The notes: generated by a model from the sequence alone, not told the origin. A stretch of 64,000 nt of DNA from Acidimicrobiales bacterium (GCA_963667505.2 OY763490.2:3312343-3376342); one strand, 5' to 3'. Positions 28,892-55,311 are shown, counted from the first letter of the stretch. Program-made: numbers and translations.

Positions 28892-29602
28892 TCATCGCCC
28901 CCCATCCTCGTAGGCGACCGCAGCGGCGAAGCGCTCTGTGCCGATGTTGTGGAGCCTCCAAGTGACATCGGGCACCTCAGCGAACCGGAAGGAGCCGCTC
29001 GCAGCGCCTTGGCGCATGGTCTGGGGGATCTCGAAGCTGGCGACGTCCATTGAGAGGCCTGTTCCTAGGGCCTTGCTGAGGGCTTCCTTCATCGTCCACA
29101 GGTCGAGGAACAGACGGAGCTTGCGGCTTCCGCCGGCCGCGGCCATGTCGGCTCGTTCATCAGGGCCGAAGACCGCCTCGACCAGCGTGTCGAGGTTGCG
29201 CTGCGGGACCCGCTCCTCGACATCGACGCCCACCCGGCCGCGGGAGGCCAGCGCGATCAGGCCGTGCTGGCCGCTGTGGCTGACGTTGAAGCCGATGGGT
29301 GCCCGGAGTCTGTTGACGGTGGCGAAGGGCTTCCCGTGCTCGGCCGTGTCGAATGCGAGCTTGCGGTTGGCGCAGCCCAGAGAATCACAGAGCAGCGAGC
29401 GCAGAGACGCCCGGCACAGGACGTACCGGCGTCTGGCACCAGTGTGCTGGAAGCGGTGCGCTCTACGCCGCTCCTCGGCGTCCAGCCATGCCCAAGCCGC
29501 CCTCTCGTTGGCTTCGTGGCGCACCAAGTCGACATGCACGACAGTGACGCCGTCGAACTGCGTGAACGGCTGCCACCAGTCGCCGACGAGGCCGAGCGCC
29601 AC
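28892..29602 (-). CDS. 4'-phosphopantetheinyl transferase (Sfp type)
   Basis: FNVSHSG, GVDVE and WTMKEALSKALGTG motifs. Confidence 0.8.
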   Translation of the reverse strand: MALGLVGDWWQPFTQFDGVTVVHVDLVRHEANERAAWAWLDAEERRRAHRFQHTGARRRYVLCRASLRSLLCDSLGCANRKLAFDTAEHGKPFATVNRLRAPIGFNVSHSGQHGLIALASRGRVGVDVEERVPQRNLDTLVEAVFGPDERADMAAAGGSRKLRLFLDLWTMKEALSKALGTGLSMDVASFEIPQTMRQGAASGSFRFAEVPDVTWRLHNIGTERFAAAVAYEDGGR

Positions 29603-29685
29603 GGCGGCGGGCCTCTATGGGGCTCCCGGGACTAGGCGACCCGGGGCGTTGCGACGGGATCCGCCCGATTGTCTCAGCCGGGCGG

Positions 29686-30001: not shown

Positions 30002-30985
30002 TCAAGCTGCGAGCGTACTCCGTATCAGCCTTCGGTCGCGGTCGCTGAAGTAGGCACACTCCGCGAGGAGGTCGCCGTCCTTCGCTCCGGCTTCGGCGAT
30101 CTCGATGTGCTGGCGGGTGGCCGCCTTGTAGGGGAAGATTCCCTTGGCGTACTGCTTGGCGGGGAACTCCAGGGCCTGCGCCCGGTTCAGGTCGTAGCGC
30201 GAAGCCGCATCGATGAAACGCAGCACGTACGCGGCGCGATGCGAGAGCTCTCCCTCGCCGAGCATGACGCTCCGGTGGGCGACCGTCTTGTTGAACAGGA
30301 GCACATCGCCGGGATCGAAGTCGTCCTCCACCTGGTGCACCTCGAGAAGCTCATCCATCAAGGGGGAGTTCAGGATCCCCTCTCTGAGGCCGCTGTAGTC
30401 CACAAGACTCGTCCTGGTCCCGGACCGTTCTCTGGCCTTGAGCACCTCGACGACCGCCAAGTCCGCCGAGTAGACGAACTCGCCCGGCAGCACATGCTGA
30501 GGAACGTAGGCCATGCCGCCGCGCTGTCCGCTGGCATCTATGGGCTGCAGCGGCGCCCACAGCGTGCATCCGAAGTCCTCGGCGAACTGGAAGCCGAAGC
30601 TCTGCACGCCGACATGCCACGGAAACCCCTTGTTGACGTTCTTCTCGACCTCGAAGGACAACTCGAAGGTGAGAAAGAGGTCGTGGCCTGCCAAGCCGGT
30701 CAGAGCCTGCCGGAAATAGGGGCGCTCCAACAGCTCGAAAAGGTCGGTCTTGGCGGCCTCGAAGTCGTACTGCACCTTGCTGAACAGGGCGTTCTTGCCG
30801 CTGTAGGAGTTGGCGGCGCTGCGGTTCAACTCGATATCGGTGCGATTGAGCAGCATGCCGACCACGCTGGCATTCAGGAATCCCTCGAGCTTGACGAAAC
30901 CGTCGCGCTGGAATTGCTCCTTCTGCTCGTCGGTGACGACGAACTCGTTGTCGAAGGGATGGCCGGTCACGATGGGCTCAGGCAA
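30002..30985 (-). CDS. PhyH-family Fe(II)/2OG oxygenase with HxG at the first iron-ligand motif (candidate halogenase)
   Basis: N-terminal TDEQKEQFQRDGFV PhyH pattern. WHVG (His124, Gly126; nt 30608-30616) sits where PhyH hydroxylases have WHxD. Distal His in NKTVAHRS and Arg in RAAYVLRF. TTG 30985 or GTG 30970 start. Confidence 0.6.
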   Translation of the reverse strand: MPEPIVTGHPFDNEFVVTDEQKEQFQRDGFVKLEGFLNASVVGMLLNRTDIELNRSAANSYSGKNALFSKVQYDFEAAKTDLFELLERPYFRQALTGLAGHDLFLTFELSFEVEKNVNKGFPWHVGVQSFGFQFAEDFGCTLWAPLQPIDASGQRGGMAYVPQHVLPGEFVYSADLAVVEVLKARERSGTRTSLVDYSGLREGILNSPLMDELLEVHQVEDDFDPGDVLLFNKTVAHRSVMLGEGELSHRAAYVLRFIDAASRYDLNRAQALEFPAKQYAKGIFPYKAATRQHIEIAEAGAKDGDLLAECAYFSDRDRRLIRSTLAA

Positions 30986-31880
30986 GTCCGGCTGGCGCCA
31001 GGAAGCCGCGCATGGCCTCCACGCACTTGGCGGGCTGCTCCAACTGGAGGAAATGAGTGGCGTCGGGCAGGAAGTCGTAGTCCACGGTCAACATGTCGCT
31101 CAGGTCCAGAGTCGGCAGGTAGGAGTACGGCAGCGTCGGGTCGGCGCCGATCACCTTCGTGGGGCACTGCAGGGCCGAGAAGTCGACCAGCACCGCGAAG
31201 AGCCGCGCGTGGGCGATGATCTGCGCTTCATGCTCCCGCGGGCATCTCAGCTCGAAGCCGGAGCCGTCCTCGGACTCGCGCAAGGTCGTCGTCGCCATCA
31301 GGTCGATCACACCGGGCACGGTGTGCTTGAACGTGGGCATGAAGCCGAGCAGTTCCATGTAGTCCTCTCTGGTCTTGAAGCTCGGCGCTCGTCGGCTTGC
31401 CGCCTTGGCTGTCCGTTCGGCTGCCTCGTCGAACTCGTTCCTGGTCGCGCCCGGTTTGCGCAGGGGAGGATCGAACAGGATGAGGGCCGAGAGCCGGCTG
31501 CCGTTGGTGGGGGACAGCAGCGGCGCAAAGGACGAGACGGAGTGGAACACCCCGACCTGCGGCTTGGCGCCGTAGTGGCGGTCGATCTCGTCGAGGATGC
31601 GGTCGTGGTCGCTGACGAAGGTCGGCACGCTGTGGTTCGAGAGGGGACCGACGGCATTCCAGCCGTGGCTTCTCAGGTCGTAGACGACAAGGTCGAAGTC
31701 CTCGGTCAGCAGTGACCAGAACGGGTAGTAGAGATCAATCGACAGGCCGTTGCCGTGGCTGAGAATGAGCCGGGTGCCTTGGGGGTTGCCGTGGCGGCGC
31801 AGCACAATGGTCGTGTCCTCGTCCACCCGCACCTCGTGGGCGGACCGCGGCTCAGGGATGGCCCAGACAGGGTCTGACAT
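30978..31880 (-). CDS. alpha/beta hydrolase fold protein, paralogue A
   Basis: SHGNGLS oxyanion region, GVFHSVSS elbow, DATHFLQLE His region. Start at ATG 31880 chosen by alignment with paralogue B (track alternative 31976). Confidence 0.7.
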   Translation of the reverse strand: MSDPVWAIPEPRSAHEVRVDEDTTIVLRRHGNPQGTRLILSHGNGLSIDLYYPFWSLLTEDFDLVVYDLRSHGWNAVGPLSNHSVPTFVSDHDRILDEIDRHYGAKPQVGVFHSVSSFAPLLSPTNGSRLSALILFDPPLRKPGATRNEFDEAAERTAKAASRRAPSFKTREDYMELLGFMPTFKHTVPGVIDLMATTTLRESEDGSGFELRCPREHEAQIIAHARLFAVLVDFSALQCPTKVIGADPTLPYSYLPTLDLSDMLTVDYDFLPDATHFLQLEQPAKCVEAMRGFLAPAGLA

Positions 31881-32012
31881 GATGAGGCCGAAAGATTCGA
31901 TCCTGCGCCGAAGCCATGCTTGAGAGGCCCCTTCGTTGTCGGACGGTTCTTGGGGAGGCCGCGACCCTACTTCCAAGCCGTCCGAACTACTCGCACGGTT
32001 GCCTCAGCGCGT

Positions 32013-41774
<9,762 letters not shown>

Positions 41775-41841
41775 CGGTGAACCCCCCGCCTCGCGCGCAG
41801 ATGGTAGTGGCCGAGGGTCGAGCCGAATCAGGCGTCCCGGG

Positions 41842-43590
41842 CTAGCTCGTCGACCTGACTTGCACGGTGACGATGTCGAGCCCGTGGAACTTCTGATGGT
41901 GCACCGACGAGGCGTAGTGGCGCAGCAGCTGCAGGGAGATCTCGCCGCCCTCGACGCCCTGGGCGCCCTGGGCCTCCTCGCTCAGGTACGCCAGCCGGTC
42001 CTCGAGGTTCTCGTCGTCGAACACGGCCAGGAACTCCAGCTCGATCACTGGTCCGCTGGGGCGGGCCTCGATGATCAAGCGGGGCGCCTTGTCGGCTCGC
42101 CCGTCGCTGCTCTGCTGGAGGCTGATCAGCGTCTCCTCCGCGGCGGCGTGCAGCCGCTGTGCCGAGGCGTCGTCCCAGCCCGCGGCGGCGGCCACCGGAT
42201 CGAGGAACTCGACGATGTCGGGCACAGAAGCCAGGTCCAGCCCGACCTCGAGCCGCCTCCGGCCGCGCGGGCCGGTCAGGTTCAGGAACACCGTCATCGC
42301 CACCGCGGCGACCGCGCCGGCCAGCAGCCCGTTGTCCAGAAGCTTGCCCCAGGTGCCCCCCAGCGTGTCGGCGATGATGGTCTGCTGGTCGAGGCCGGCC
42401 CCGAACGCGAACGCCAGTCCGGCCACCAGCGCCTTCTGGCCGTCGAGCCCGTCCTGCACGACCGACCGCACCCCGCCCATGAAGATCAGCGCGATGGCGG
42501 TGAGCACGTAGGCCGCCATCACCGGGCTGGGAATGGTCAGCAGGACGGCGGTCGCCTTGGGGAGAAACGCCAGCGCGGCCAGGGCCCCGCCGATCACCCA
42601 CCCGGCGCGCCGGGACGCCACCCCGGTGAGGCTCGTGAGCGACACGCTCGTGGACGAGTAGACGGTGGTGGGCGGCGCCCCGGCGAGGCCGGAGAACAGG
42701 ATGCCGAGCCCGTTGGTGTTCAGGGAGCCCTGCACGACCCGGAAGTCGGTGGCCCTCGGCCTGCGCCGGCAGGCCTGCTGCACGGCCACGCAGTCGCCCA
42801 TGTTCTTGACGCCGCCCACCAGGGTGACCACCACGAAGGCGGGCAGCAGGGTCCAGAAGCCGATGCCAGGCGTCAGGTCGATCCCCGGAAATCCAGCGTC
42901 GGGAATTCCGGCCCAGGGGGCGTCGGCCACCGGTGAGGCGTCGTAGGTGCCGAGCGGGATCGAGACGGCGCAGCCCGCGGCCAGGCCGACCACCGGTGAC
43001 CAGAGGCGCCAGGCGCCGGTGGCTCGAAATGCCATCGCCGCGGTGACGGCCAGCGTGACCAGGGTGATGGCGGGGCCGGCCGCGTCGGGCGCGCCCTCGG
43101 GCACCTCCTGGACCCTGTCGAACGCGACCGGCAGGATCGTGACCGCGATCAGCATGAGGACCGTGCCCGACACCACCGGCGTGATCACCCTGCGCAGCAG
43201 CGGCAGCCACAGCGCCAGCGCCACGTAGAACAGCGCCGCCGCGGCGGTGAGGCTGGCCAGCAGGGGCGGCCCTCCCTCGTTGAGGGCCAGCACCGAGACG
43301 GCCACGAAGTTGGGGGTGGTGCCCATGATCAGGATGTGGCCCGCGCCGAACCGCCACCACCTGGTCGCCTGGAGCGCGGTCAGGGTTCCGGCGATCACCA
43401 GCGAGGCGAAGACGGCCCATTGGAGGTAGCGGTCGTCCTGGCCGCCGGCTCGTGCGGTGACGGCCACGATCAGCACCAGCGGCGCCAGCGCGAGGACCGC
43501 GCCCTGCAGGCCCACCGCGGCCAGCACCGGCGCCGGGCACGGCTCGTCGGGCTCGAAGCGGATCGAGTCGTTGGTGCCCGGAGCGCTCAC
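41842..43590 (-). CDS. NCS2-like (xanthine/uracil permease family) transporter with a C-terminal ~143-aa soluble domain, paralogue T1
   Basis: ITPVVSGTVLMLIAVTILP and TGVASRRAGWVIGGALAALAFLPK...IPSPVMAAY follow NCS2 signatures. Soluble tail at 41845-42273. Confidence 0.65.
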   Translation of the reverse strand: MSAPGTNDSIRFEPDEPCPAPVLAAVGLQGAVLALAPLVLIVAVTARAGGQDDRYLQWAVFASLVIAGTLTALQATRWWRFGAGHILIMGTTPNFVAVSVLALNEGGPPLLASLTAAAALFYVALALWLPLLRRVITPVVSGTVLMLIAVTILPVAFDRVQEVPEGAPDAAGPAITLVTLAVTAAMAFRATGAWRLWSPVVGLAAGCAVSIPLGTYDASPVADAPWAGIPDAGFPGIDLTPGIGFWTLLPAFVVVTLVGGVKNMGDCVAVQQACRRRPRATDFRVVQGSLNTNGLGILFSGLAGAPPTTVYSSTSVSLTSLTGVASRRAGWVIGGALAALAFLPKATAVLLTIPSPVMAAYVLTAIALIFMGGVRSVVQDGLDGQKALVAGLAFAFGAGLDQQTIIADTLGGTWGKLLDNGLLAGAVAAVAMTVFLNLTGPRGRRRLEVGLDLASVPDIVEFLDPVAAAAGWDDASAQRLHAAAEETLISLQQSSDGRADKAPRLIIEARPSGPVIELEFLAVFDDENLEDRLAYLSEEAQGAQGVEGGEISLQLLRHYASSVHHQKFHGLDIVTVQVRSTS

Positions 43591-43609
43591 AGCGGCACGG
43601 TCTCCGTGC

Positions 43610-44542
43610 TCAGGCCAGACCGACCGACGCCAGGAAGCCGCGCAGCGCGGCGGCGCAGTCCGCGGGCTTCTCGAGCTGGAGGAAGTGGGTGGTGTCGGGC
43701 AGGAAGTCGTAGTCCACGGTCACCATCTCTCGCAGGTCCAACGGCGGCAGGTACGTGTAGGGCATGACCGGGTCGCCTCCGATGACCTTGGTGGGGCAGC
43801 GGAGGGCCTCGAAGTCGACCAGCACTGCGAAGATGCGGGCGTAGGCGATGATCTGGGCCTCATGCTCGCGGGGGCACCGTAGTTCGTAGCCGTAGCCGTC
43901 GGCGCTCTCCCGCAGCGTGGTCCGGGCCATCAACTCGTACATGCCGGCGACGGCGTGCTCGAACTTCGCCAGCGAGCGGAGACGGTCGGCGAAGTGCTCC
44001 CTGGTGGCGAACCGGAAGGAGCGGCGCTGGGCGATCTTGGCGGCCCGGTCGGCGGCGTCGTCGAAGGGGGTGCGGTCCGCGCCGGGCTTGCGCATCAGCG
44101 GGTCGAACAGGACGAGCGCGTCGAACCGGCTGCCCTCGGTGGGCGACAGCAGCGGCGCCAGCGCCGAGACCGAGTGGAACACGCCCGCCTGGGGCTTGGG
44201 GCCGTAGCGGCGGTCGATGGCGTCGAGGATGCGCTCGTGGTCATTGACGAGGTCGGGCACGGTGTGGCCCGCCAGCGGGCCGACCGGGTTCCAGCCGTGG
44301 CTCCGCAGGTCGTAGACGACGATGTCGAAGGTGTCGGTCAGCCGCGCCCAGAACGGGTAGTACAGGTCGACCGACAGTCCCACCCCGTGCGACACCACCA
44401 GCCGGGTGCCCAGCGGGTTGCCGTGCCGGCGCAGGACGATGGAGGCGCCCCCGTCCGCCTCGACCCTGCAGATCGACAGCGGCTCAGGAACAGGCCACGC
44501 CACCCCCGATCCCACCGGCCCAACCGTACCGGGCGCCGACAC
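43610..44542 (-). CDS. alpha/beta hydrolase fold protein, paralogue B
   Basis: Alignable end to end with 30978..31880. Shared blocks: IVLRRHGNP.GTRL, DLRSHGWN, GVFHSVS, LRCPREHEAQIIA, CPTKVIG, VDYDFLPD.THFLQLE. Confidence 0.7.
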   Translation of the reverse strand: MSAPGTVGPVGSGVAWPVPEPLSICRVEADGGASIVLRRHGNPLGTRLVVSHGVGLSVDLYYPFWARLTDTFDIVVYDLRSHGWNPVGPLAGHTVPDLVNDHERILDAIDRRYGPKPQAGVFHSVSALAPLLSPTEGSRFDALVLFDPLMRKPGADRTPFDDAADRAAKIAQRRSFRFATREHFADRLRSLAKFEHAVAGMYELMARTTLRESADGYGYELRCPREHEAQIIAYARIFAVLVDFEALRCPTKVIGGDPVMPYTYLPPLDLREMVTVDYDFLPDTTHFLQLEKPADCAAALRGFLASVGLA

Positions 44543-44560
44543 GGCTCCCGAGAGGGCCGG

Positions 44561-46309
44561 CTAGCCGCCCGCCCCGACGTGCACGGTCACGACGTCGAGG
44601 CCGTGGAACTTCTGGTGATGCACCGCCGACGCGTAGTGCCGCAGCAGCCTGAGCGAGATCTCTCCCTCCTCCAAGCCGTCGGTGCCCTGGGACTCCTCGC
44701 TCAGGTAGGCCAGCCGGTCCTCGAGGTTCTGCTCGTCGAACACGGCCAGGAACTCCATCTCCACCGCGTCTTCGCCGAGGCGCGCCTTCACTATCAGCCG
44801 GGGCGCGTCGTCGCTCGGGGCGTCGTCCTGCTCCAGCAGGCTCATCAGGGCCTCCTCGCCCGCGGAGCGGAGCCGTTGCGCGGCCGCTTCCTTCCAGCCG
44901 ACTCTGGACGCGAAGCGGGCGAGGAACTCGTCGATCTCTGTGAGCGCCGACATGTGGAGCCTGGACTCGAGCCGCCCGCTTCCCTTCCGGTCGGCGATGT
45001 TCAGCAGGCGTGTGATGAGGATCACGACCAGCGCGCCGACCAGCATGCCGTTGTCGATGAGCAGCCCCCATGGGTCGCCCAGCGTGTCGGTGCCGATGGT
45101 CTGGTTGTCGAGGCCCACGCCCAACGCGAACGCCACCCCTACCGCCAGCGTCTTTCCGGCGGAGAGGCCGTCGCGGATCACAGTCTGGATGCCGCTCACG
45201 AACACCAGGCCGATGGCGGTCAGCACGTAGGCCGCCAGGACCGGGCTGGGGATGGACAACAGCACTGCGGCCACCTTGGGCAGCAGCGCCACCGTCGCTA
45301 GCAGCGCGCCGATCCAGAAGCCGACGGCGCGTGCCGCCACTCCGGTGAATTGCACCAGCGACGAGCTGAACGACGAGTAGACGGTCGTTGGCGGGGTGCC
45401 CGCGAGGCCCGAGAGCACAATGCCGAGCCCGTTGGTGGCGAGTGATCCCTGCACCAGCCGGAAGTCGGTCGCCCGGCGCCGGCGCCGGGAGACTTGCTGA
45501 ATGGCGACGCAGTCCCCGATGTTCTTCATGCCGACCACGAGGGCCACCACCACGAATCCCGGCAGCAGCGCCAGGAACTCGGGGCCGGGAGTCAAGTCGA
45601 GTCCAGGGAGGCCGCCGTCGGGCAGGCCCGCCCATGCCGAGTCCAGGATCGGCCCGAGCTCGTATGCCCCGAAGGCGGCGGCCACGACGCAGCCGGTCGC
45701 CAGGGCCAACAGCGGCGACCAGACCCGCCACAAGCCGGTGAGCCGCGTCGTCAGCAGGAGCATGGCGATGAGCGTCACCAGCGCCACCACCGGGCCAGCG
45801 GCGGCGGGCGTGTCCTCGGGGATGTCCTGCAGCAGGTCGATCGCTATGGGCAGGATGGATGCCGCGATCAGCATGAGCACCGTGCCCGAGACTGTGGGCG
45901 TGACGATCCGGCGTAGCAGCGGAAGGCGCGAGGCCAGAGCGAGGTAGCACAGCGATGTCGCCACGGTGAGGCTGGCCAGCAGGCCCGGGCCGCCGACGGT
46001 GAGGGCCAGCACCGAGACAGCCACATAGTTGGGGGTGGGTCCCATGATCAGGATGTGGCCCGCGCCGAACCGCCACCACCGGGTGGCCTGCAGCGCGGTG
46101 AGGACTGCGGACACAATCAAGGAGGCGAAGATGGCCCAGGCCAGGTAGCCGTCGTCCTGATCGCTGGCCCGGACGGTGATGGCCACGACCACCACGATCG
46201 ACACCAGAACCATGGTCAGCCCCTGAGCGCCGACGCCGAGAGCCAGCCGCGGCGGGCAGGGCTCGTCCGGCTCGTAGCGAATGGCGTCGTCGGCGTTCTG
46301 GGCGGTCAT
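44561..46309 (-). CDS. NCS2-like transporter with C-terminal soluble domain, paralogue T2
   Basis: Shares IRYEPDEPCP, LQATRWWRFGAGHILIMG, FLAVFDEQNLEDRLAYLSEE and LLRHYAS.VHHQKFHGLD with T1 and T3. Tail at 44564-44992. Confidence 0.65.
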   Translation of the reverse strand: MTAQNADDAIRYEPDEPCPPRLALGVGAQGLTMVLVSIVVVVAITVRASDQDDGYLAWAIFASLIVSAVLTALQATRWWRFGAGHILIMGPTPNYVAVSVLALTVGGPGLLASLTVATSLCYLALASRLPLLRRIVTPTVSGTVLMLIAASILPIAIDLLQDIPEDTPAAAGPVVALVTLIAMLLLTTRLTGLWRVWSPLLALATGCVVAAAFGAYELGPILDSAWAGLPDGGLPGLDLTPGPEFLALLPGFVVVALVVGMKNIGDCVAIQQVSRRRRRATDFRLVQGSLATNGLGIVLSGLAGTPPTTVYSSFSSSLVQFTGVAARAVGFWIGALLATVALLPKVAAVLLSIPSPVLAAYVLTAIGLVFVSGIQTVIRDGLSAGKTLAVGVAFALGVGLDNQTIGTDTLGDPWGLLIDNGMLVGALVVILITRLLNIADRKGSGRLESRLHMSALTEIDEFLARFASRVGWKEAAAQRLRSAGEEALMSLLEQDDAPSDDAPRLIVKARLGEDAVEMEFLAVFDEQNLEDRLAYLSEESQGTDGLEEGEISLRLLRHYASAVHHQKFHGLDVVTVHVGAGG

Positions 46310-46313
46310 CGGG

Positions 46314-48122
46314 CTAGCCCGCGGCGTTGACCTGCACGGTCACCACGTCCAGTCCGTGGAACTTCTGGTGATGCACCGATGAGGCGTAATGCCTCAGCAG
46401 CCTGAGCGAGATCTCGCCGTTCTCCGTGTCGGAGACGCTCTGTGACTCCTCGCTCAGATGGGCGAGGCGGTCTTCTATGTTCTGCTCGTCGAACACCGCC
46501 AGGTACTCCATCTCCACGGTCGCCCCGCTGTTGCGGGCGACCACGATCAGACTGGGAGAATCGTCGGCCGAGTCGGCGACCGGGTGTTCGTCGTGTTGCC
46601 GGGCTGGGCCTGGCGGCGCCTCCTCGTTCGGGCGGTCGCCCTGGTCCAGCAGGCTCATCAGCGTCTCCTCGCCGGCGGCACGAAGCCGCTGCGCGGCGGC
46701 GTTGTTCCACCCGATGTCGGCCGCGAAGCCGCGGAGGAACTCGTCGATCTCGTTCACGGACGAGGGATGCAGGTCGACCTCGAGGCGCGCCCGCCGGCCT
46801 CGGCTGGACAGCTCCGCGAGCCGGGTCAGCACCACCGCGGCCACCGTGCCGGCCAGCAGGCCGTTGTCGAGCAGCGGCGCCCATGTCTCGCCCAGCACTT
46901 CGGCGCCGACGGTCTGGTTGTCCAAGCCCACGCCCAAGGAGAACGCGAGCCCTACCGTGATGGCCTTGCCCCGGTCGAGGCCGTCGGCCACCATTGCCTG
47001 GACGCCGCGCCCGAACAGCACTCCGATGGCAGTGACCAGATAGGCGCCCATCACCGGGCTGGGGATGGCCAGCAGCACCGCGGTCACCTTGGGCATCAGC
47101 GCCAGCATCACCATGATCAGCCCGATGGCGTAGCCGACGCGGCGGGCGGCCACGCCGGTGAGGCTGATCAGCGAAGGGCTCGACGACTCGTAGACGCTGG
47201 TGGGCGGCGTGCCGGCGATGCCCGACATCAGTATTCCGAGTCCGTTGGTGTTGAGCGATGCCTGCACCAGCCGGAAGTCGGTCACCCGGGGCTTGCGCCA
47301 CGACAGCTGCTGGATGGTCACGCAGTCGCCGATGCTCTTGACGCAGCCCACTAGGGAGACCACCACGAACCCCGGCAGCAGGGCCCAGAACTCGACGCCC
47401 GGGGTCAGATCCAGTCCCGGGAATTCGGCTGCGGGGAGCCCGACCCATGCGGCGTGACGAATGTGCTCGACGTCGTAGGCACCGAACGGCACCGCCGCCA
47501 GGCACCCGGAAGCGATGGCCATGAACGGCGACCAGATACGCCAGGAACCTGAGACCCGCACGGACAGCACCACCACCGCGGCCAGGGTCACCAGAGCCAC
47601 CACCGGGCCGGCCGCGGCGGGCGCGTTCTCGGGCACCTCGTCCACCCGGTCGAGCGCGACCGGCAGGATCGTGGCCGCGATCAGCATGCACACCGTGCCC
47701 GACACCACTGGCGTGATGACCCGGCGCAGCAGCGGGAGCCAGAGGGACAGCACGGTGTAGAAGATCCCGGCAGCGATGGTGAGGCTGGCCAGCAGGGTCG
47801 GACCGCCCGCGGTCAGCGCCAGCACCGCGAGCGCCACGTAGCTGGGCGTCGGCCCCATGATCAGGATGTGGCCGGCGCCGAGTCGCCCGAAGCGCCCCGC
47901 CTGCATCGCAGTCAGCAGTCCGCCGATGATCAGCGAGGCGGCCACCGCCCACGTGAGGTAGCTCTCGCCCTGGTTGCCCGCCCGGGCGGTGATGGCCACG
48001 ACCAGCACCATCGTCGTCAGCGCGAGCATCACTCCCTGGGCCCCGACGACCAGCGCTATCAGGGGCGGGCAGGGCTCGTCCGGCTCGTAGCGGATGGCGT
48101 CCTCAGACTGCGGAGCGCTCAT
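46314..48122 (-). CDS. NCS2-like transporter with C-terminal soluble domain, paralogue T3 (20-aa insertion in the tail)
   Basis: Same conserved blocks as T1 and T2. Tail at 46317-46805. Confidence 0.65.
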   Translation of the reverse strand: MSAPQSEDAIRYEPDEPCPPLIALVVGAQGVMLALTTMVLVVAITARAGNQGESYLTWAVAASLIIGGLLTAMQAGRFGRLGAGHILIMGPTPSYVALAVLALTAGGPTLLASLTIAAGIFYTVLSLWLPLLRRVITPVVSGTVCMLIAATILPVALDRVDEVPENAPAAAGPVVALVTLAAVVVLSVRVSGSWRIWSPFMAIASGCLAAVPFGAYDVEHIRHAAWVGLPAAEFPGLDLTPGVEFWALLPGFVVVSLVGCVKSIGDCVTIQQLSWRKPRVTDFRLVQASLNTNGLGILMSGIAGTPPTSVYESSSPSLISLTGVAARRVGYAIGLIMVMLALMPKVTAVLLAIPSPVMGAYLVTAIGVLFGRGVQAMVADGLDRGKAITVGLAFSLGVGLDNQTVGAEVLGETWAPLLDNGLLAGTVAAVVLTRLAELSSRGRRARLEVDLHPSSVNEIDEFLRGFAADIGWNNAAAQRLRAAGEETLMSLLDQGDRPNEEAPPGPARQHDEHPVADSADDSPSLIVVARNSGATVEMEYLAVFDEQNIEDRLAHLSEESQSVSDTENGEISLRLLRHYASSVHHQKFHGLDVVTVQVNAAG

Positions 48123-48344: not shown

Positions 48345-49526
48345 GTGATCGCGGACTTGGAGCACGAGCCGATCGTGGAGCGGCTGCGGCGCACGGCGGG
48401 CGAGACGGCCGGGCTGGTGGACGCCCCGCTGGCGAGCCCGATGCTGCAGCCCTACGAGGTGTACGACCAGGAGCTGTTCGACCTGGAGATGGTGCGGGTG
48501 TTCGCCCGGTCGTGGGTATGGCTGGGCGACACCGAGGACCTGGCCGAGCCCGGCGACTACATCACCGGCACCATCGGCTACCAGCCGGTGATGGTGATCC
48601 GCCAGGAGGACGGCTCGGTGCGGGGCTTCCTCAACAACTGCCGCCACCGGGCGTCGGGGCTGTTGTTCGAGCCGGCCGGCAACTGCGGCAAGACCATGAC
48701 CTGCCCGTACCACAACTGGGCCTACGCCATCGACGGCCGCCTTGTCGGCATCCCCGACCGGGCCCGCATGTACCCCGACGGGATGCCCGCCGAGGACTAC
48801 GGGCTGGCCCCGATCCGCATCGAGGTGGCCTGGGACAAGCTTGTGTTCGGCTGCCTGTCGCGGCGGGCGCCGTCGTTCCGCGAGTGGATCGCCCCGCTGG
48901 CCGAGCGCTACGACCTCTACAAGTTCGGCAGTTTCACCCGCTACTACCGCGAGCTCGACGAGACCTACCCGATCAACTGGAAGGCCTTCGCCGAGAACTC
49001 CAACGACGACTACCACGTCCGCTTCGTGCACCGGCGCCTCAACAAGCTGCGCAAGCAGATGGACACCATCGTCCGTTTCGAGGGCCGCACCTGCAGCGGG
49101 TTCAAGCCCCACGCCGACGATGACGACGCCGCCGGCGGGCGCACCGACCTGACCTCCGAGCAGCTCCTAGGGCACTACGCCGACTTCATCTACCCCAACC
49201 TCACCCCGCTGCCGTACCCGACGCAGCTCATCCTGGTGCGGGCCGACCCCGTGGCGCCCGACCGCACCCGGCTGTTCAGCCGCATCTACGGGATCGACAA
49301 GTCCATCGAGGAGCAGGACTTCGAACTCGACCGTCTTGCCGTCACCAACCTCGAGGACACCAACATGGTGACCGAGCTGATGAAGAACCTGCGGTCGCCG
49401 TTCTACCGGGTGGGGCCCGCCTCCAGCTGGGAGGGCCGTGCCGCCCATGTCATGAAGCTGGTGCGGACCGACGTGGCCACGCCGCTGGCCGACGACGAGT
49501 TCACAGCCCCGCGGTCGACGGCATGA
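48345..49526 (+). CDS. Rieske (2Fe-2S) non-heme iron oxygenase alpha subunit
   Basis: CRHRASGLLFEPAGNCGKTMTCPYHNW. GTG start at 48345. Confidence 0.85.
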   Translation: MIADLEHEPIVERLRRTAGETAGLVDAPLASPMLQPYEVYDQELFDLEMVRVFARSWVWLGDTEDLAEPGDYITGTIGYQPVMVIRQEDGSVRGFLNNCRHRASGLLFEPAGNCGKTMTCPYHNWAYAIDGRLVGIPDRARMYPDGMPAEDYGLAPIRIEVAWDKLVFGCLSRRAPSFREWIAPLAERYDLYKFGSFTRYYRELDETYPINWKAFAENSNDDYHVRFVHRRLNKLRKQMDTIVRFEGRTCSGFKPHADDDDAAGGRTDLTSEQLLGHYADFIYPNLTPLPYPTQLILVRADPVAPDRTRLFSRIYGIDKSIEEQDFELDRLAVTNLEDTNMVTELMKNLRSPFYRVGPASSWEGRAAHVMKLVRTDVATPLADDEFTAPRSTA

Positions 49527-49583
49527 GCGGCGCCGCGTGACCGACACGACATGAGCTGGCGCCGCGTGACCGGCACGACATGA
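49523..49583 (+). repeat. 29-bp tandem duplication of the stop/start junction (ATGAGC.GGCGCCGCGTGACCGRCACGAC)
   Basis: Units at 49523-49551 and 49551-49579, then the aldolase ATGAGT at 49580. Creates two mini-ORFs (MSGAA*, MSWRRVTGTT*). Confidence 0.85.
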
Positions 49584-50365
49584 GTGCTCCGTTCTCGGCC
49601 GTGTCGGCCGGCAAGCGTCGTCGCTTCCGTCACATCTTCGGCGACGACGGCAGGGCCGTGTTCGTGGCTATGGACCACCCCGCCTACATGGGCATGGGCG
49701 TGGTGCCCGAGGCGGCGGCCGCGATCGCCGAAGGCGGCCCCGACGCGATCCTGGCCACTTGGCAGCTGGCTCGGGCCCGCCCGGAAGCATTCGCAGGCTC
49801 GGGACTGGTGCTGCGGGTGGACGGCGGCATCTCCGACCTAGGCGAACCTCCTGGCTCCGACACCACGTCGCTGCTGTACTCGGCCGAACAGGCCATGGTG
49901 CTGGGCGCGGACGCGGTGGTGCTCATGGTGTTCCCCGGCACGCCCGACGAAGACCGCTCACTCGCCCGCCTCGCCCGCCTCGCCGCCGAGTGCGAACTGC
50001 TCGGGCTGCCGGTGATGGCCGAGTCGATACCGGGCGGCTGGCCCCGCACCGTGCCCTGGACTGCGGAGAACGTCGGCCGCGGCGCCCGCCTCGCCGTCGA
50101 GCTCGGCGCCGACATCGTCAAGACCATGTGTCCCGGCGCCCCCGAGGAGTTCGCCGCGGTGGCCGACGCCTGTCCCGCTCCGGTGGTGGCGCTGGGCGGT
50201 CCCAAGGTGGACGACGAGGACCAGGTGGTCGCGCTGGCCCGGGGGGTGGTGGAGGCCGGTGGCGCAGGCGTGGCCTTCGGCCGCAACGTCTGGGGGTCCG
50301 ACGACCCGGCCGCACTGGTGGGCCGCCTGCTGGAGGCCGTCCACGTCGCCGACGGCGCTAGCTGA
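49580..50365 (+). CDS. class I aldolase family protein (DhnA/FbaB/LsrF type)
   Basis: FGDDGRAVFVAMDHPAYMG and GADIVKT (candidate Schiff-base Lys) pattern. Confidence 0.7.
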   Translation: MSAPFSAVSAGKRRRFRHIFGDDGRAVFVAMDHPAYMGMGVVPEAAAAIAEGGPDAILATWQLARARPEAFAGSGLVLRVDGGISDLGEPPGSDTTSLLYSAEQAMVLGADAVVLMVFPGTPDEDRSLARLARLAAECELLGLPVMAESIPGGWPRTVPWTAENVGRGARLAVELGADIVKTMCPGAPEEFAAVADACPAPVVALGGPKVDDEDQVVALARGVVEAGGAGVAFGRNVWGSDDPAALVGRLLEAVHVADGAS

Positions 50366-50458
50366 CGGGAGGCTGGGTGCCGCCGATGGTTGCGCAGCCG
50401 GTGTCGGAGTCCGCCGCGGCGGCGACGGCCGCGGCGTGAGGCTCGCAGAGTCCCGCTG

Positions 50459-51025
50459 ATGGCCCAGCAGACGGCGTCGGCAGTGGACGATGATCTCTAT
50501 AGGCGCCTCGCGGGCTTGGCTTCGGCCGAGGCGGCCGACCGGGGGCCTGGGCACCCCGAACTGCGTCCTGCGGTCGAGCAGGCCCTCTACCACGAGGCCA
50601 GGCTGCTCGACGAGCGCCGCTACCGCGACTGGCTGGAACGGTTCACCGACGACTGCGTCTACTGGGTGCCCCTCGACCCCGACGCAGACCCCCGCACCCA
50701 GGTGTCGTACCTGCTCGACGACCGGCGCCGGATGCAGGACCGGATCGGGCTGCTGGAAACAGGATGGGCCCACGCCCAGGAGCCGCCGTCGCGCACCTGC
50801 CGCATCGTGTCCAACGTGGAGGCGTGGCCGCTCGACCCCGGCGGCGAGACCCTGGCCCGTTGCTCGACGGTCGTGTGGGAGCACCGCAAGGACCGGCTGA
50901 CCCCGTTCGCCAGCCGCAACGACTACGTGCTGGCCTCGCTGGGCGACGAATGGGCCGTCAGATACAAGATCGTGCGGCTGGTGGACTGCTCCGGCGACGT
51001 GCGCAAGTTCTCGTTCGTGCTATAG
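50459..51025 (+). CDS. aromatic-ring-hydroxylating oxygenase beta subunit (NTF2-like)
   Basis: ALYHEARLLDERRYRDWLERFTDDCVYWVP pattern. ATG 50459. Confidence 0.8.
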   Translation: MAQQTASAVDDDLYRRLAGLASAEAADRGPGHPELRPAVEQALYHEARLLDERRYRDWLERFTDDCVYWVPLDPDADPRTQVSYLLDDRRRMQDRIGLLETGWAHAQEPPSRTCRIVSNVEAWPLDPGGETLARCSTVVWEHRKDRLTPFASRNDYVLASLGDEWAVRYKIVRLVDCSGDVRKFSFVL

Positions 51026-51057
51026 ATGCGGCCAGAACACCGAAGCGAGGTGCCGAC

Positions 51058-52371
51058 ATGACCGCTCTCGACACCCTGGTCCAGCCTCACCGGGTCCATC
51101 GCTCGATCTACACCGACGCCGAGGTCTTCGGCGCCGAGATGTCCAAGGTCTTCGGTGGAGCCTGGGTCTACCTGGCTCACGAGAGCCAGGTGCCCGAGCC
51201 CAACGACTTCATGGTGTCGCGCCTGGGGCTGCGCCCGCTCATCGTCACCCGCGACGATGACGGCGGCCTGCACGCCCTGTTCAACCGGTGCGCCCACCGG
51301 GCCTCCACCGTGTGTCAGTCCGATTGCGGGTCGGCTCGGCGCTTCCAGTGCTCCTACCACGGCTGGACCTACTCCAACCGCGGCGACCTGGTCAACGTGC
51401 CGTTCGGCGACGGCTACCCGGCCGACTTCCACAAGGAGGACCACGGCCTGGCCCAGGTGCCCCGCCTCGGCACGTATCGGGGTCTGATCTTCGGCACCCT
51501 CAACCTCGACGCTCCGAGCCTGGCGGCGTGGCTCGGCCCGGCCGGTCCTCTGATCGACGGATTCGTCGACCGGTCGCCGTCGGGACGCATCGAGGTGCGC
51601 AACTGCCAGCGCATGATCTACCAAGGCAACTGGAAGCTGGCCTGGGACAACGCCGGTGACGGCCTGCACCCCACCTTCGCCCACCGCAGCTTCCTGATCC
51701 TCAACGAGCGCCAGCACGGCGGCGCCCGTTCGCTGTCTCAGTTCAAGGCCAGCCCCGACGACACCGACATGTACGGCGCCGACCTCGGCAACGGGCACAT
51801 GTTCGTCGACCAGCGGCCCGGCCTCAGCAAGTCCTTCTGGGAGACGCAGCGGCCGGTGCCGGGCCGGGAGTGGTACGCCGAGCGCATCGCCGAGCGCCAT
51901 GGCGACGACGCGCCCGAGGTGCTGGAGACGGCGCCGGGCTCGATGATCAACCTGTCGATCTTCCCCAACCTGCTAATCAAGGGCAACCATCTCGAGACGG
52001 TCGATCCCGTCGGCGTGGGCGAGACCCGGCTGCACACCTGGGTGGTCGCGGCGGAGGGCGCGCCCGAAGAGGTGAACGTGCTGCGAATGCGGATCGCGGA
52101 GGACTTTCCCAGCCTCGGGAATCCCGACGACCTGGAGATCTTCGAGCGCTGCCAAGAAGGCCTGGCCATCGCCGAGGTCGAGTGGGTGGACATGAGCAAG
52201 GGGCTCGGCCACGAGGCCGAGGAGGTCGCCGCCGACGGCTTGAGGAGGGCGCCGGTCACCCATGAGGGGCCGATGCGCGGCTACCTGCGGGCCTGGCTGG
52301 CGCTGATGTCGGCCGACGTGAAGCTCACGACCGCGGGCCCGGGCGAGGTCACCTGCGAAGTGGCCGCATGA
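51058..52371 (+). CDS. Rieske ring-hydroxylating oxygenase alpha subunit
   Basis: CAHRASTVCQSDCGSARRFQCSYHGW. ATG 51058. The track's upstream extension to 50764 was discarded. Confidence 0.85.
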   Translation: MTALDTLVQPHRVHRSIYTDAEVFGAEMSKVFGGAWVYLAHESQVPEPNDFMVSRLGLRPLIVTRDDDGGLHALFNRCAHRASTVCQSDCGSARRFQCSYHGWTYSNRGDLVNVPFGDGYPADFHKEDHGLAQVPRLGTYRGLIFGTLNLDAPSLAAWLGPAGPLIDGFVDRSPSGRIEVRNCQRMIYQGNWKLAWDNAGDGLHPTFAHRSFLILNERQHGGARSLSQFKASPDDTDMYGADLGNGHMFVDQRPGLSKSFWETQRPVPGREWYAERIAERHGDDAPEVLETAPGSMINLSIFPNLLIKGNHLETVDPVGVGETRLHTWVVAAEGAPEEVNVLRMRIAEDFPSLGNPDDLEIFERCQEGLAIAEVEWVDMSKGLGHEAEEVAADGLRRAPVTHEGPMRGYLRAWLALMSADVKLTTAGPGEVTCEVAA

Positions 52372-53078
52372 CGCCGCCCGGTGCGGGCGGAGGGCCCCGC
52401 GGGCGCCTTGTGCGGGAGATGGTCGTGCCGCGCTGTGGGGGACGGGCGGTGGAGGTGCGGGCCGGGCAGGTGCTCAGGATTGTGGCGCTGGACGGCCCCC
52501 AGGTGGCCGACACCGCCTTCCTGGCCCTCGACAACCCGCGCGAGGGCTACCACGCTGGCCAGACGGTGGCCCTCAACATGCTGGCCGGCACCGGGACCAT
52601 GCGGCGCGTCACCACCCTGTGGTCTCGCCCGCCCTACGAGCGGCTGATGCTGACCGTCGTCGATGATCCGGTCGGGGTGCACTTCGCCTGGAACGGCGGC
52701 CGATGCTCGCAGGGCGTGTACGCGGTGCGCGACGGCATCGAGTCCGGCCACCGCACCTGCCAGGGCAACCTTGAGGAGGCGGTCCGGCCCTGGGGAGTGG
52801 ACCCCGACCTGATCCCTGACGTGTTCAATGTGTTCATGCGCACCGATGTGGAGGACGAGGCGAGGCTGGTGTTCCGGCAGTCGCCCGCGGCCGCAGGCGA
52901 TTACATCGATCTGCGGGCGGAGATCGACGTGCTGGCCGCGGTGTCGGCCTGCCCCAGCGAGACATCGGCCTCCAACGGGGGCGAGCCCAAGCGCATCGGC
53001 CTCGAAGTGTGGGCCGAGGACTGGGATGGCCCGGTGGCTGGCGTATCGTCCGGCCCGGCGTCCGGAGAAGGGAAGTGA
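52368..53078 (+). CDS. DUF1989 (urea-carboxylase-associated family) protein
   Basis: VPRCGGRAVEVRAGQVLRIVALDGPQVADTAFL pattern. ATGA overlap with the oxygenase stop. Confidence 0.6.
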   Translation: MTPPGAGGGPRGRLVREMVVPRCGGRAVEVRAGQVLRIVALDGPQVADTAFLALDNPREGYHAGQTVALNMLAGTGTMRRVTTLWSRPPYERLMLTVVDDPVGVHFAWNGGRCSQGVYAVRDGIESGHRTCQGNLEEAVRPWGVDPDLIPDVFNVFMRTDVEDEARLVFRQSPAAAGDYIDLRAEIDVLAAVSACPSETSASNGGEPKRIGLEVWAEDWDGPVAGVSSGPASGEGK

Positions 53079-53083
53079 CAGCC

Positions 53084-53389
53084 ATGGTGAGAATGGTCCG
53101 CAAGGCTCAGGTCGACTCCAGCGACGTGGCCCGGGTGCGCGAGTGGATCCAGCGGTACACCGGCTATATGGCCGCGGCCGACCCCGACCGGGTGACGGTC
53201 ACGTCCTGGATGGAGGCCTACGGCGCCTACGGCAAGGTGTATTGGATGATCGACGCTCCCGACCTGGGCACTCTCGACGAGTTCTTGGAGGGGCTGCCCG
53301 CCGAGGAGGGATACCGGGACATCCTCAAGGCGGGCAGCGAGTTGTTCGTCTCGGGCCAGACCAGCGACATGCTGCTCAAAGAGGTCTGA
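53084..53389 (+). CDS. hypothetical small protein
   Basis: 101-aa ORF with non-shadow composition, tightly packed between its neighbours. No family recognised. Confidence 0.4.
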   Translation: MVRMVRKAQVDSSDVARVREWIQRYTGYMAAADPDRVTVTSWMEAYGAYGKVYWMIDAPDLGTLDEFLEGLPAEEGYRDILKAGSELFVSGQTSDMLLKEV

Positions 53390-53452
53390 GTCCTAGGCTT
53401 GCCTCCCTGTCGGGGCGGGTCCGCGATCCTGCCCCGTCCAGGCGGAGCAGCC

Positions 53453-54679
53453 ATGGCTGACAGTGAGACTTCCCGACGCGGTGCGCCGCGCCGGCGCCGG
53501 GGCGCCGACCGCGGCCTGCTGCCGTTCCAGGTGCTGATGGGGGTGACCGCGGCGGGCATCGGCGGGATCGTGACGGTGCTCGGCGAGCTGCGCGACGAGC
53601 TCGAGTTCAGCGGGACCGGAGTGGGCGTGATGGTGGCCAGTGGCTTCGTGGCCGCCTTCGTGTCGCAGATGACCCTGGCCCGACTCGCAGACGTGGGCCA
53701 CGCGCGGCTGATGGCGGCTGCGGGGATCGGGCTCAGCGCGGGATCCATGCTGGCGATGGTCTTCGCCGTGGATCTCACCTCCTGGGTCGTCAGCAGGGCT
53801 GCTCTCGGGTTCGCGGGCGGCCTGATCCTGCCGGGAGTGCGCAGGGCCGCCTCGGTGCACGATCCGGCCCGGGCGGGCGAGAACCTGGGCCGGATGGTGG
53901 TGGCCGAGACCACCGGTTTCATCTTCGGCCCGGTGATGACGGCCTTGCTGGTGTGGATCGGCGGGATCCGGGCGCCGTTCGCGGTGTTCGCCGGAGCCAT
54001 GCTGCTGTTCCTGCCGGTCGCGTTGCGCCTGCCCCCCGACCGCGGCCTCCTGGACGTGGCCCGGCGCACCGCGTTCGACCTTCTGACGCTGCGGCGCCTG
54101 CAAGGCGCGCTGATCATGGTCGGCGGCTACTTCATGATCATTGGCGCCTGGGAGGCGGTGCTGCCCGTGATGTTCGCCGACCGGGGCGCCGGCGCGGTCA
54201 TGACCGGCATCGCCTTCACCATGGTGGCCCTGCCGATCATGCTCGTGGGCACTCGGGCGGGACGCCTGGCCGACCGGGTGGGACCGGTGCGGGTGGCGAT
54301 GGCGGGCCTCGTGGTGGTGAGCCTGGTCACCATGACCTACGGCGTCATTCCGGGAGTGGTCCCGGTCACGGCCGCCATGGTGCTGGTCGGCTTCGGCGAC
54401 GGCTACGGCTTCACCGCCGCCCATGTGGTGGTGGCCCGGGCCGTACCCGAGCAGCGCCAGGCGGCTGCGCTCGGCCTGATGGGCGCGGCCGAGGTGGCCG
54501 GGGCGGCCGTCGCCGCGCTCCCGGCCGCCTGGCTGTACGACAGCTTCGGGTCCGGCCCCACTTGGGCCACAGTCGGCCTGACTGTGCTGGCGCTGGTGGC
54601 CGTGGGCTGGCTGCGGATGCGGGGCACGGTGCCCGAATCAGGCCCCGACGCCCCTGACTCGGGCCGGTGCGACGGCTGA
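53453..54679 (+). CDS. MFS transporter
   Basis: About 12 hydrophobic segments and the LARLADVGHARL loop 2-3 motif region. Confidence 0.75.
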   Translation: MADSETSRRGAPRRRRGADRGLLPFQVLMGVTAAGIGGIVTVLGELRDELEFSGTGVGVMVASGFVAAFVSQMTLARLADVGHARLMAAAGIGLSAGSMLAMVFAVDLTSWVVSRAALGFAGGLILPGVRRAASVHDPARAGENLGRMVVAETTGFIFGPVMTALLVWIGGIRAPFAVFAGAMLLFLPVALRLPPDRGLLDVARRTAFDLLTLRRLQGALIMVGGYFMIIGAWEAVLPVMFADRGAGAVMTGIAFTMVALPIMLVGTRAGRLADRVGPVRVAMAGLVVVSLVTMTYGVIPGVVPVTAAMVLVGFGDGYGFTAAHVVVARAVPEQRQAAALGLMGAAEVAGAAVAALPAAWLYDSFGSGPTWATVGLTVLALVAVGWLRMRGTVPESGPDAPDSGRCDG

Positions 54680-54700
54680 AGTACGCTTCGACGCAGGCTC

Positions 54701-55306
54701 ATGGGGACACGGGACGCTTCGAGTCCCGAAGCCCTGATCGCCTTGCGGAAGCGGGGAGCAGCGATGGACGTCGACGAACTGGTCCGGCGGATTGTGGACG
54801 CTTCGGCCGATGGGGGCATCCCGGCGGTCCGGGAGGAGGTGGACCGCCTGATTGCGGACCCGGCCGGCCTGCGCCAGGCGATCCCTGAGCCTGACCTTCC
54901 GGTACTGGCGCCGCTCTATGAGTCCGAGGACATCACCATCATGAACGTCGTGTGGGGTCCGCGGATGTACATCGGTCCCCACGACCATCGGATGTGGGCC
55001 TGCATCGGCATCTACGGAGGCCGGGAGGACAACCAGCTCTACCGGCGCGAGGGCGGGTCGATCGCGTCGAGCGGCGGGCGCAGCGTCGAGGCGGGCCAAT
55101 CGATCTCGCTCGGCGACGCGACCGTGCACTCGGTCCACAACCCGCTCGACCGGCTGACCGGCGCGATCCACGTCTACGGCGGCCCGTTCCTCACCCAGCC
55201 GAGGAGCGAGTGGGACCTGGAGACGCTGACGGAGCGGCCGTCGGACGCCGCGCGGTCGAGGCGATACTTCGAGGAGGCGGCGAAAGCGATGACGTCGGAG
55301 GCCTGA
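54701..55306 (+). CDS. cupin / cysteine-dioxygenase-like double-stranded beta-helix protein
   Basis: GPHDHRMWACIGIYGGRE ... ATVHSVHNP metal-ligand-like pattern. The start is uncertain (an alternative ATG lies near 54764). Confidence 0.5.
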   Translation: MGTRDASSPEALIALRKRGAAMDVDELVRRIVDASADGGIPAVREEVDRLIADPAGLRQAIPEPDLPVLAPLYESEDITIMNVVWGPRMYIGPHDHRMWACIGIYGGREDNQLYRREGGSIASSGGRSVEAGQSISLGDATVHSVHNPLDRLTGAIHVYGGPFLTQPRSEWDLETLTERPSDAARSRRYFEEAAKAMTSEA

Positions 55307-55311
55307 GCGTA

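Follow-up and report, generated by a model that had tools for sequence, protein, structure and literature searches.

What are three proteins resembling xanthine/uracil permeases doing beside a polyketide synthase (PKS)? This question is raised by a 64,000-nt stretch of DNA from an Acidimicrobiales bacterium (GCA_963667505.2 OY763490.2:3312343-3376342; ~70% GC), hereafter referred to in its whole length as the window, in which three genes (T1, T2 and T3) encode NCS2-type permeases that each carry a C-terminal soluble tail. Based on the domain identities, motif losses, family distribution and cassette linkage presented here, we propose an equivalence of these proteins with SupE, the permease of the sup (sponge symbiont ubiquitous PKS) cluster, together with a substrate class, a direction of transport and a role for the tail. 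The interpretation that we favour, and consider reasonably probable, is that T1-T3 are accessory permeases of a sup-type cassette, that is, non-nucleobase carriers of the NCS2 fold with a pseudokinase tail, which would move a solute of the PKS pathway, preferentially by export.

Membrane core and substrate pocket

T1, T2 and T3 are 60-62% identical to one another over their full length, and their GC content at the third codon position (GC3) of 0.89-0.93 is the coding signature of this high-GC genome. The Pfam family PF00860 (Xan_ur_permease) covers approximately residues 25-400 of all three (profile positions ~3-383 of 389; E 1e-33 to 1e-38), and the sole solved relatives retrieved by a sequence search of the PDB are UraA, UapA and SVCT1. 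In Pfam neither Sulfate_transp nor STAS matched T1-T3 even at E<=1. An assignment to the SulP-STAS transporters, which a first-pass annotation of this locus had named as an example of a finding that would overturn its own NCS2 assignment, was rejected, since Sulfate_transp is lacking and the fold of the tail is GHKL and not STAS. The first-pass annotation was thus right about the membrane family; what does not carry over from the family is the binding site, in which the canonical nucleobase-binding residues are absent.

T1-T3 share with the NCS2/NAT transporters (UraA, XanQ, UapA, SVCT1; PF00860; TCDB 2.A.40) the Pfam family and the 7+7 inverted-repeat fold, and they keep the aspartate of transmembrane helix 8 (TM8; equivalent to UapA D360) and the ...LTG... 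end of the TM10 motif. In the NAT family, the TM8 glutamate and the Q/E/P-N start of the TM10 signature, [Q/E/P]-N-x-G-x4-T-[R/K/G], are essential for nucleobase recognition. A HMMER alignment to UraA places K262 at the position of E241, D266 at that of H245, S313/T314 at that of E290 and S315 at that of N291. In other words, Lys takes the place of the TM8 Glu, and the TM10 signature begins with Thr-Ser instead of Q/E/P-Asn, only its ...LTG end being kept. Within 27 core-clade sequences, K262, D266 and S315 never vary, and N263 and S312 hardly do. The scores of the curated NCBIfam models also remain under threshold: 151-156 bits against a cut-off of 291.8 for TIGR00801 (ncs2), and 170-176 bits against 414 for TIGR03173 (pbuX), the best of these models. 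Further differences from the NCS2/NAT transporters are the extra C-terminal domain of ~145 aa and a genomic context that is a PKS cassette and not purine/pyrimidine metabolism.

Because the base-binding residues of UraA, XanQ and UapA are replaced, we infer that the substrate is not a nucleobase, and the reversal of charge from Glu to Lys points to a solute that is anionic or zwitterionic. The customary name "xanthine/uracil permease" would then probably be wrong. Family proteins are publicly named 'hypothetical protein', 'uracil-xanthine permease family protein' or 'xanthine permease XanP', and the mis-annotation would be systematic, affecting thousands of database entries.

A probably nucleotide-dead relative of anti-sigma kinases

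The tails of T1-T3 start near residue 440 and are ~140-160 aa long; in T3, the NCS2-fold core spans ~aa 23-435 and the RsbW-like tail ~aa 445-602. The conserved blocks quoted in the first-pass annotation are all present in the alignment, far beyond chance: IR[FY]EPDEPCP at the N-terminus, and GW..A.AQRL..A.EE.L.SL, FLAVFD[DE][EQ]N[LI]EDRLA[YH]LSEE and GEISL.LLRHYAS.VHHQKFHGLD.VTV in the tail. The tail motifs are EE...SL, ENLEDRLA and SLRLLRHYASSV.

An AlphaFold2 (AF2) model built from 19 tails (pLDDT 78, pTM 0.75) displays the element order beta-alpha-alpha-beta-beta-alpha-(disordered loop/lid)-alpha-beta-beta. When this model was compared with the PDB using Foldseek, the first 19 places were all taken by RsbW, SpoIIAB or UsfX (E 4e-7 to 6e-4, probability 1.0, TM 0.55-0.82), including M. 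tuberculosis UsfX (8ih8, 8jzt), B. subtilis RsbW (6m36, 6m37) and SpoIIAB (1l0o, 1th8, 1tid, 1til, 1thn); histidine-kinase ATP-binding domains come next. Sequence and profile searches of the tails against PDB chains gave nothing meaningful. HATPase_c_2 is their sole recurrent Pfam match, weak and under threshold: it was found in 5 of 19 core tails (best E 0.0026) and 5 of 27 divergent ones (best E 7.9e-4), and residues 455-564 of T2 reach only 12.8 bits (E 0.12) against the PF13581 gathering cut-off of 27.4. A first profile-profile alignment (hhalign) to RsbW and SpoIIAB was weak (E 0.089); with a profile of 46 tails, aligned to RsbW, SpoIIAB and a bona fide HATPase_c_2 protein, the value improved to E 2.4e-4. 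The likeness to RsbW/SpoIIAB-type HATPase_c_2 domains, which had been suspected by eye, is thereby borne out, and the model supports a Bergerat (GHKL) fold for the tail, with the size and secondary-structure order of the RsbW/SpoIIAB anti-sigma kinases.

What separates the tail from these kinases is its nucleotide site. In the hhalign register, the Glu-Glu pair of the family lies on the N-box catalytic Glu, and a Ser lies on the Mg-ATP-binding Asn. A survey of 143 tails, representatives of the whole family, revealed at the latter position S (80 tails), T (31) or otherwise C/A/I/V/G/L/M, and Asn in none, whereas the Glu equivalent to the catalytic base is kept in 140 of 141. The G1 box DxGxG reads FDEEN or is more degenerate, and the G2 box GGLGL reads GEISL, its glycines being replaced by Glu and Ser. 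The first-pass annotation had already noted, correctly, that obvious ATP-binding G-boxes are lacking here, and the N-box Asn is also gone. Because the Mg-ATP-binding Asn and the glycine boxes are lost, the tail almost certainly no longer binds ATP, and would be a pseudokinase. The EE pair, the Asn of ENLEDRLA and SLRLLRH are near-invariant and specific to the family, which suggests a conserved function other than ATP turnover. Other departures from RsbW, SpoIIAB and UsfX are the covalent bond to a transporter and the fact that no cognate sigma or STAS gene was found in the sup-type loci by a low-sensitivity search.

By homology with the topology of UraA, the tail is expected to be cytosolic. 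This architecture is reminiscent of the SulP/SLC26-STAS transporters, which belong to the same structural superfamily and in which a cytosolic C-terminal domain has also been borrowed from a partner-switching system; a regulatory or dimerising role is likewise plausible for the tail of T1-T3. However, the membrane domain of T1-T3 is NCS2 and not Sulfate_transp, and the fold of their tail is that of the kinase/anti-sigma partner (RsbW/SpoIIAB) and not of the antagonist (SpoIIAA/STAS). Alongside SulP-STAS, and complementary to it, proteins of this type would be a second example of the recruitment of a partner-switching domain by a UraA-fold carrier.

The T3 tail (46317-46790, minus strand) additionally contains an insertion of 20 aa (EAPPGPARQHDEHPVADSAD-like); the loop concerned, which connects helix 2 to strand 2, varies in length across the family.

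Distribution and linkage to a putative sup-type PKS cassette

The fusion is widespread. Homology searches retrieved 1270 related 90%-identity clusters for T1 and 2723 clusters at E<=1e-50 for T3, and the 120 T1 relatives listed are full-length proteins with the tail, apart from a few shorter entries. A profile of the tail matched 652 clusters at 50% identity (among 1.84 billion representatives), always at the C-terminus, the complete proteins being 540-600 aa long. In species-representative genomes (one genome per species), the fusion is present at at least 560 places; the best 78 of these, all in metagenome-assembled genomes (MAGs), were retained for the study of gene neighbourhoods. Judged from record titles, these 78 loci belong to sponge symbionts of several phyla, including the Acidimicrobiia genera Candidatus (Ca.) Poriferisocius, Poriferisodalis and Aldehydirespirator as well as Chloroflexota/Dehalococcoidia, Latescibacterota, Gemmatimonadota and Vicinamibacterales.

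The window is closest to Ca. Aldehydirespirator, the copies of which are 83-84% identical to T1, while the closest relatives of T3 are proteins from Acidimicrobiaceae MAGs (75-77% identity) and one protein from an ENA contig (96%). In a neighbour-joining tree, T1 is orthologous to the Ca. Aldehydirespirator copies, and T2 and T3 fall into another Acidimicrobiia clade. The three copies described in the first-pass annotation are thus old paralogues, and a recent local triplication was rejected. Nor are these three minus-strand genes strictly in tandem, as had been described, since a hydrolase gene intervenes between T2 and T1. Two permease copies occur in 16 of the loci, mostly adjacent to one another.

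Two loci labelled Vicinamibacterales (Acidobacteriota; L005) and Dehalococcoidia (L065) have a near-identical gene content over 20 kb, which may reflect either a recent horizontal transfer or a binning error. Each holds a second family member, 39-41% identical, with Q/A in place of K/D in the pocket and separated from a SulP transporter gene by one MaoC-like gene.

In the window, the genes are transcribed in the order T3, T2, hydrolase, T1, PKS, second hydrolase, PhyH-like, acyl carrier protein (ACP) and 4'-phosphopantetheinyl transferase (PPTase), all on a single strand with intergenic gaps of at most 73 nt (Table 1); T2 starts 4 nt past the stop of T3, and 67 nt separate the stop of T1 from the start of the PKS. 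To evaluate the conservation of this arrangement, the predicted neighbours of the 78 loci and of the window were clustered, genes within 10 kb being counted as part of a cassette. At least one cassette partner (PKS, hydrolase, ACP or PPTase) is found in 55 of the 78 loci: a PKS of ~3000 aa in 38 (C-terminal pieces counted), an alpha/beta-hydrolase of ~301 aa in 32, an 81-aa ACP in 20 and a PPTase in 19. The gene directly downstream of the permease is a hydrolase in 16, the PKS in 15 and the ACP in 9 of 74 loci, and the gaps between permease and hydrolase are mostly 12-71 nt, with one overlap of 35 nt. Both hydrolases of the window fall in the same conserved neighbour cluster, and the PhyH-like gene, although inside the operon-like run, falls in none and is not a conserved member of the cassette. 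The fusion is therefore common, yet associated with the PKS cassette; a common fusion lacking such an association would have spoken against the first-pass annotation.

This arrangement is strongly suggestive of the sup cluster. The Sup PKSs are monomodular, ubiquitous in and restricted to high-microbial-abundance sponges, and proposed to produce methyl-branched fatty acids (PMC4245539, PMC9864124); sup-type genes accounted for >99% of ketosynthase (KS) amplicons in one study (PMC4245539). 'SupE' (ABE03914), encoded on the sup clone pAPKS18, is a permease, and a 557-aa permease encoded immediately upstream of swfA, where two anti-anti-sigma (STAS) genes flank it on the swf fosmid, has SupE as its best match (44% identity; PMC3908369, Table 1). 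SupE itself goes back to the description of the sup cluster by Fieseler et al. (2007, AEM 73:2144), as cited in PMC3908369. T1-T3 resemble SupE as permeases of ~560-600 aa beside a monomodular PKS of sponge symbionts, and the cassette partners match the five-gene sup layout, which we take to be PKS, ACP, PPTase, hydrolase and permease. We therefore strongly favour the view that T1-T3 are SupE-type permeases of a sup-type cassette, and infer that the PKS of the window is itself of the Sup type.

Permeases had been held in the first-pass annotation to be abnormal in PKS clusters, an expectation that proved mistaken: SupE is a long-known component of this cluster type (PMC3908369, Table 1), and the presence of permeases is thus not anomalous here. 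As the permease of the sup cluster has been known since 2007 and such proteins are abundant in databases, this is not a new system. Compared with the sup cluster, the window is distinguished by its three permease copies and two hydrolases. The published annotation of SupE is merely 'permease', and we did not find the NCS2-plus-pseudokinase architecture or the lost nucleobase site described; a literature search on NCS2-anti-sigma fusions returned nothing useful, and the same holds for searches on the names of the sup genes and on recent studies of sup. The NCS2 fold with a lost nucleobase site, the degenerate RsbW/SpoIIAB-like tail and the link to the sup cassette in sponge symbionts of several phyla thus appear undescribed in the searchable literature. 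The product and the role of the Sup-type PKS, which dominates PKS surveys of high-microbial-abundance sponges, are still unproven, and new handles on this problem may be offered by a cluster permease that is apparently not a nucleobase carrier, occurs in several phyla, is often duplicated and bears a putative pseudokinase domain of the partner-switching family.

In the scheme that we propose, T1-T3 would act as 14-helix secondary transporters of the NCS2/UraA fold, the substrate of which would most likely be an organic solute linked to the PKS pathway, and probably an anion. The cytosolic alpha/beta-hydrolase would release the product from the PKS or from the discrete ACP, and the permeases would then export this acyl or keto-acid product, the import of a precursor being nearly as likely. 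The tail would most likely be a regulatory and/or dimerising module under the transporter dimer, possibly binding a protein partner, in a role analogous to that of the STAS domain of SulP/SLC26 transporters.

Several points weigh against this proposal. NCS2 proteins are known as importers, and we know of no exporter with this fold. The full-length AF2 model (mean pLDDT 56) is too poor for an analysis of the pocket, for docking of the tail or for a fold search. The window contains no gene for a STAS protein, a sigma factor or partner switching, and no STAS protein was retrieved by phmmer from six-frame open reading frames (ORFs) of the 78 loci and the window with SpoIIAA and RsbV as queries, a weak negative given the low sensitivity of this search. 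Homology searches with T1, T3 and the first KS of the PKS (KS1) returned no homologue named SupE or SupA, and the sup assignment therefore remains putative. Divergent family members occur in assorted non-PKS contexts, and of 27 divergent representatives only 14 have the pocket Lys (5 have Glu), so that the family as a whole is not PKS-specific; different clades probably carry different solutes. Finally, the methyl-branched fatty acids proposed as the Sup PKS product have no obvious need for export (PMC4245539).

The opposite direction of transport is, in our view, a possible but tentative explanation: T1-T3 would import a host- or seawater-derived precursor, for instance a starter acid, to be attached to the discrete ACP for extension by the PKS, and the hydrolase would either process what is imported or serve as an acyltransferase. 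To our knowledge, every NCS2 member characterised so far is an importer, and five Chloroflexota loci (L036, L052, L062, L067 and L075) hold a permease-ACP-PPTase-hydrolase unit, without a PKS within 10 kb, together with acyl-CoA dehydrogenases, enoyl-CoA hydratase and P450. The multiple permease copies would also agree with the expansion of uptake systems near the cassette (ABC and MFS transporters, Rieske oxygenases). However, an imported acid would need activation, for which the cassette encodes neither an adenylating enzyme nor a CoA ligase, and the tight adjacency of permease and hydrolase fits release followed by export equally well.

An unlikely alternative is that the permeases mainly serve in signalling, as transceptors or in a membrane-tethered form of partner switching: the tail would hold a STAS protein or a sigma factor and release it according to the substrate state, and the PKS operon would be controlled in this way. 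The tail has specifically the fold of the anti-sigma kinases, a group that binds sigma factors and STAS proteins, and its near-invariant motifs EE, N and SLRLLRH, on the surface, point to a conserved site of interaction. Such partners are also found in the vicinity of relatives, with the two anti-anti-sigma genes that flank the SupE-like permease on the swf fosmid (PMC3908369, Table 1), and with the divergent member P0168, ~4 kb from a STAS / response-regulator-SpoIIE / HATPase_c_2 module. Nevertheless, these two contexts are anecdotal, no STAS or sigma gene was found in the window or, by the low-sensitivity search, in the sup-type loci, and the strong conservation of the membrane pocket is that expected of a working transporter. 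In a more specific version, to which we give slightly less credence still, the capture of free STAS proteins or of a sigma factor by the nucleotide-dead tail, at the membrane, would depend on the transport state, and the transceptor would couple a host- or pathway-derived solute to PKS expression or activity. If signalling of this kind were real, SupE-type permeases would couple a solute to the most abundant PKS system of sponge microbiomes.

It is very improbable, and largely refuted, that T1-T3 are ordinary xanthine/uracil permeases lying beside a PKS by chance, as the public annotations and the rank of pbuX among NCBIfam models would have it: their scores are under half of the curated cut-off for pbuX and about half of that for ncs2, the base-binding Glu and Asn are replaced, and the linkage to the PKS cassette is conserved across several phyla. 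Least credible of all is a tail acting like RsbW as an active serine kinase or ATPase that phosphorylates a partner, since the GHKL fold and the retained catalytic-base-equivalent Glu are outweighed by the absence of the Mg-binding Asn from all 143 tails, of a G1 DxGxG and of the G2 glycines (replaced by Glu/Ser), and by an ATP-lid region that is short and of low confidence in the AF2 model.

The operon-like run and its surroundings

Table 1. Features of the operon-like run of the window, in order of transcription
Feature	Coordinates	Strand	Basis
T3, putative SupE-type permease, 602 aa	46314..48122	-	ORF list; Pfam PF00860 E 1.9e-33; alignment
T2, putative SupE-type permease, 582 aa	44561..46309	-	ORF list; Pfam PF00860 E 3.2e-38
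Alpha/beta-hydrolase, 310 aa, between T2 and T1	43610..44542	-	Pfam Abhydrolase_6 E 3e-10
T1, putative SupE-type permease, 582 aa	41842..43590	-	ORF list; Pfam PF00860 E 1.9e-36; UraA alignment
T1 tail, aa ~445-582, predicted degenerate GHKL / RsbW-like domain	41845..42258	-	AF2; Foldseek; hhalign register
Monomodular type I PKS, 3253 aa, KS-AT-DH-cMT-ER-KR-ACP + second KS	32013..41774	-	Pfam domains
Second alpha/beta-hydrolase, 332 aa, paralogue of the first	30978..31976	-	Pfam Abhydrolase_6
PhyH-like dioxygenase, weak match	30002..30985	-	Pfam PhyH E 6e-4, under cut-off
Discrete ACP, 80 aa	29686..29928	-	Pfam PP-binding E 3e-7
PPTase	28892..29614	-	Pfam ACPS E 2.4e-18

Long ORFs overlapping the permease genes (41530-42936 (+), 41828-43540 (-), 43955-45301 (+), 44484-46079 (-) and 46306-47952 (-)) were rejected as high-GC artefacts; their translations are rich in Arg, Pro and Gly, and none passes the GC3/GC2 coding filter.

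The PKS has no thioesterase domain. Its second KS (~32013-33890, minus strand) follows the ACP and a Pro/Glu/Ala-rich repeat linker (~33891-34022; EPEPQPAARPEPE...). This KS is complete, with Cys-His-His motifs that look intact by eye (TACAS, HGLGT, NIGH). A KS-AT linker accompanies it, without a second AT, and in combination with the discrete ACP the arrangement looks like a split second module. The hydrolase family is the most constant neighbour of the permeases. Both hydrolases of the window have GVFHSVSA where the GxSxG nucleophile elbow is expected (FHSVS), and their best PDB relatives are only remote esterases or putative hydrolases. In the hydrolase adjacent to the permeases, no signal peptide is obvious by eye.

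At the end of the cassette, a FitA-like antitoxin and a PIN-domain toxin form a VapBC-type pair (28185-28816, minus strand), and such a pair directly adjoins the permease in five Acidimicrobiia loci (L001, L002, L003, L027 and L040). At the other end, a plus-strand block divergent from T3 (48345-56484) encodes a Rieske oxygenase alpha subunit, a DeoC-type aldolase, a ring-hydroxylating beta subunit, a second Rieske alpha subunit, a DUF1989 protein, an MFS transporter and a CoA-transferase; its synteny with the cassette extends to many Acidimicrobiia loci and to the ENA contig L079.

The surroundings of the divergent family members are varied. In L080, P0242 (1-1686 and 6001-7662 region) is located ~4.3 kb from a 2329-aa PKS of SwfA-like size (KS-AT-DH-ER...), with IS66-type genes in between, and in L082 (1-1738 and 6001-7629) a similar distance of ~4.3 kb separates P0168 from its STAS / response-regulator-SpoIIE / HATPase_c_2 module. 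In L084 (1-6866), a divergent member lies directly downstream of the gene for a protein of >3500 aa that carries SRCR, fibronectin-III, Calx-beta and SWM repeats; eukaryote-like repeat proteins of this sort have often been reported from sponge symbionts.

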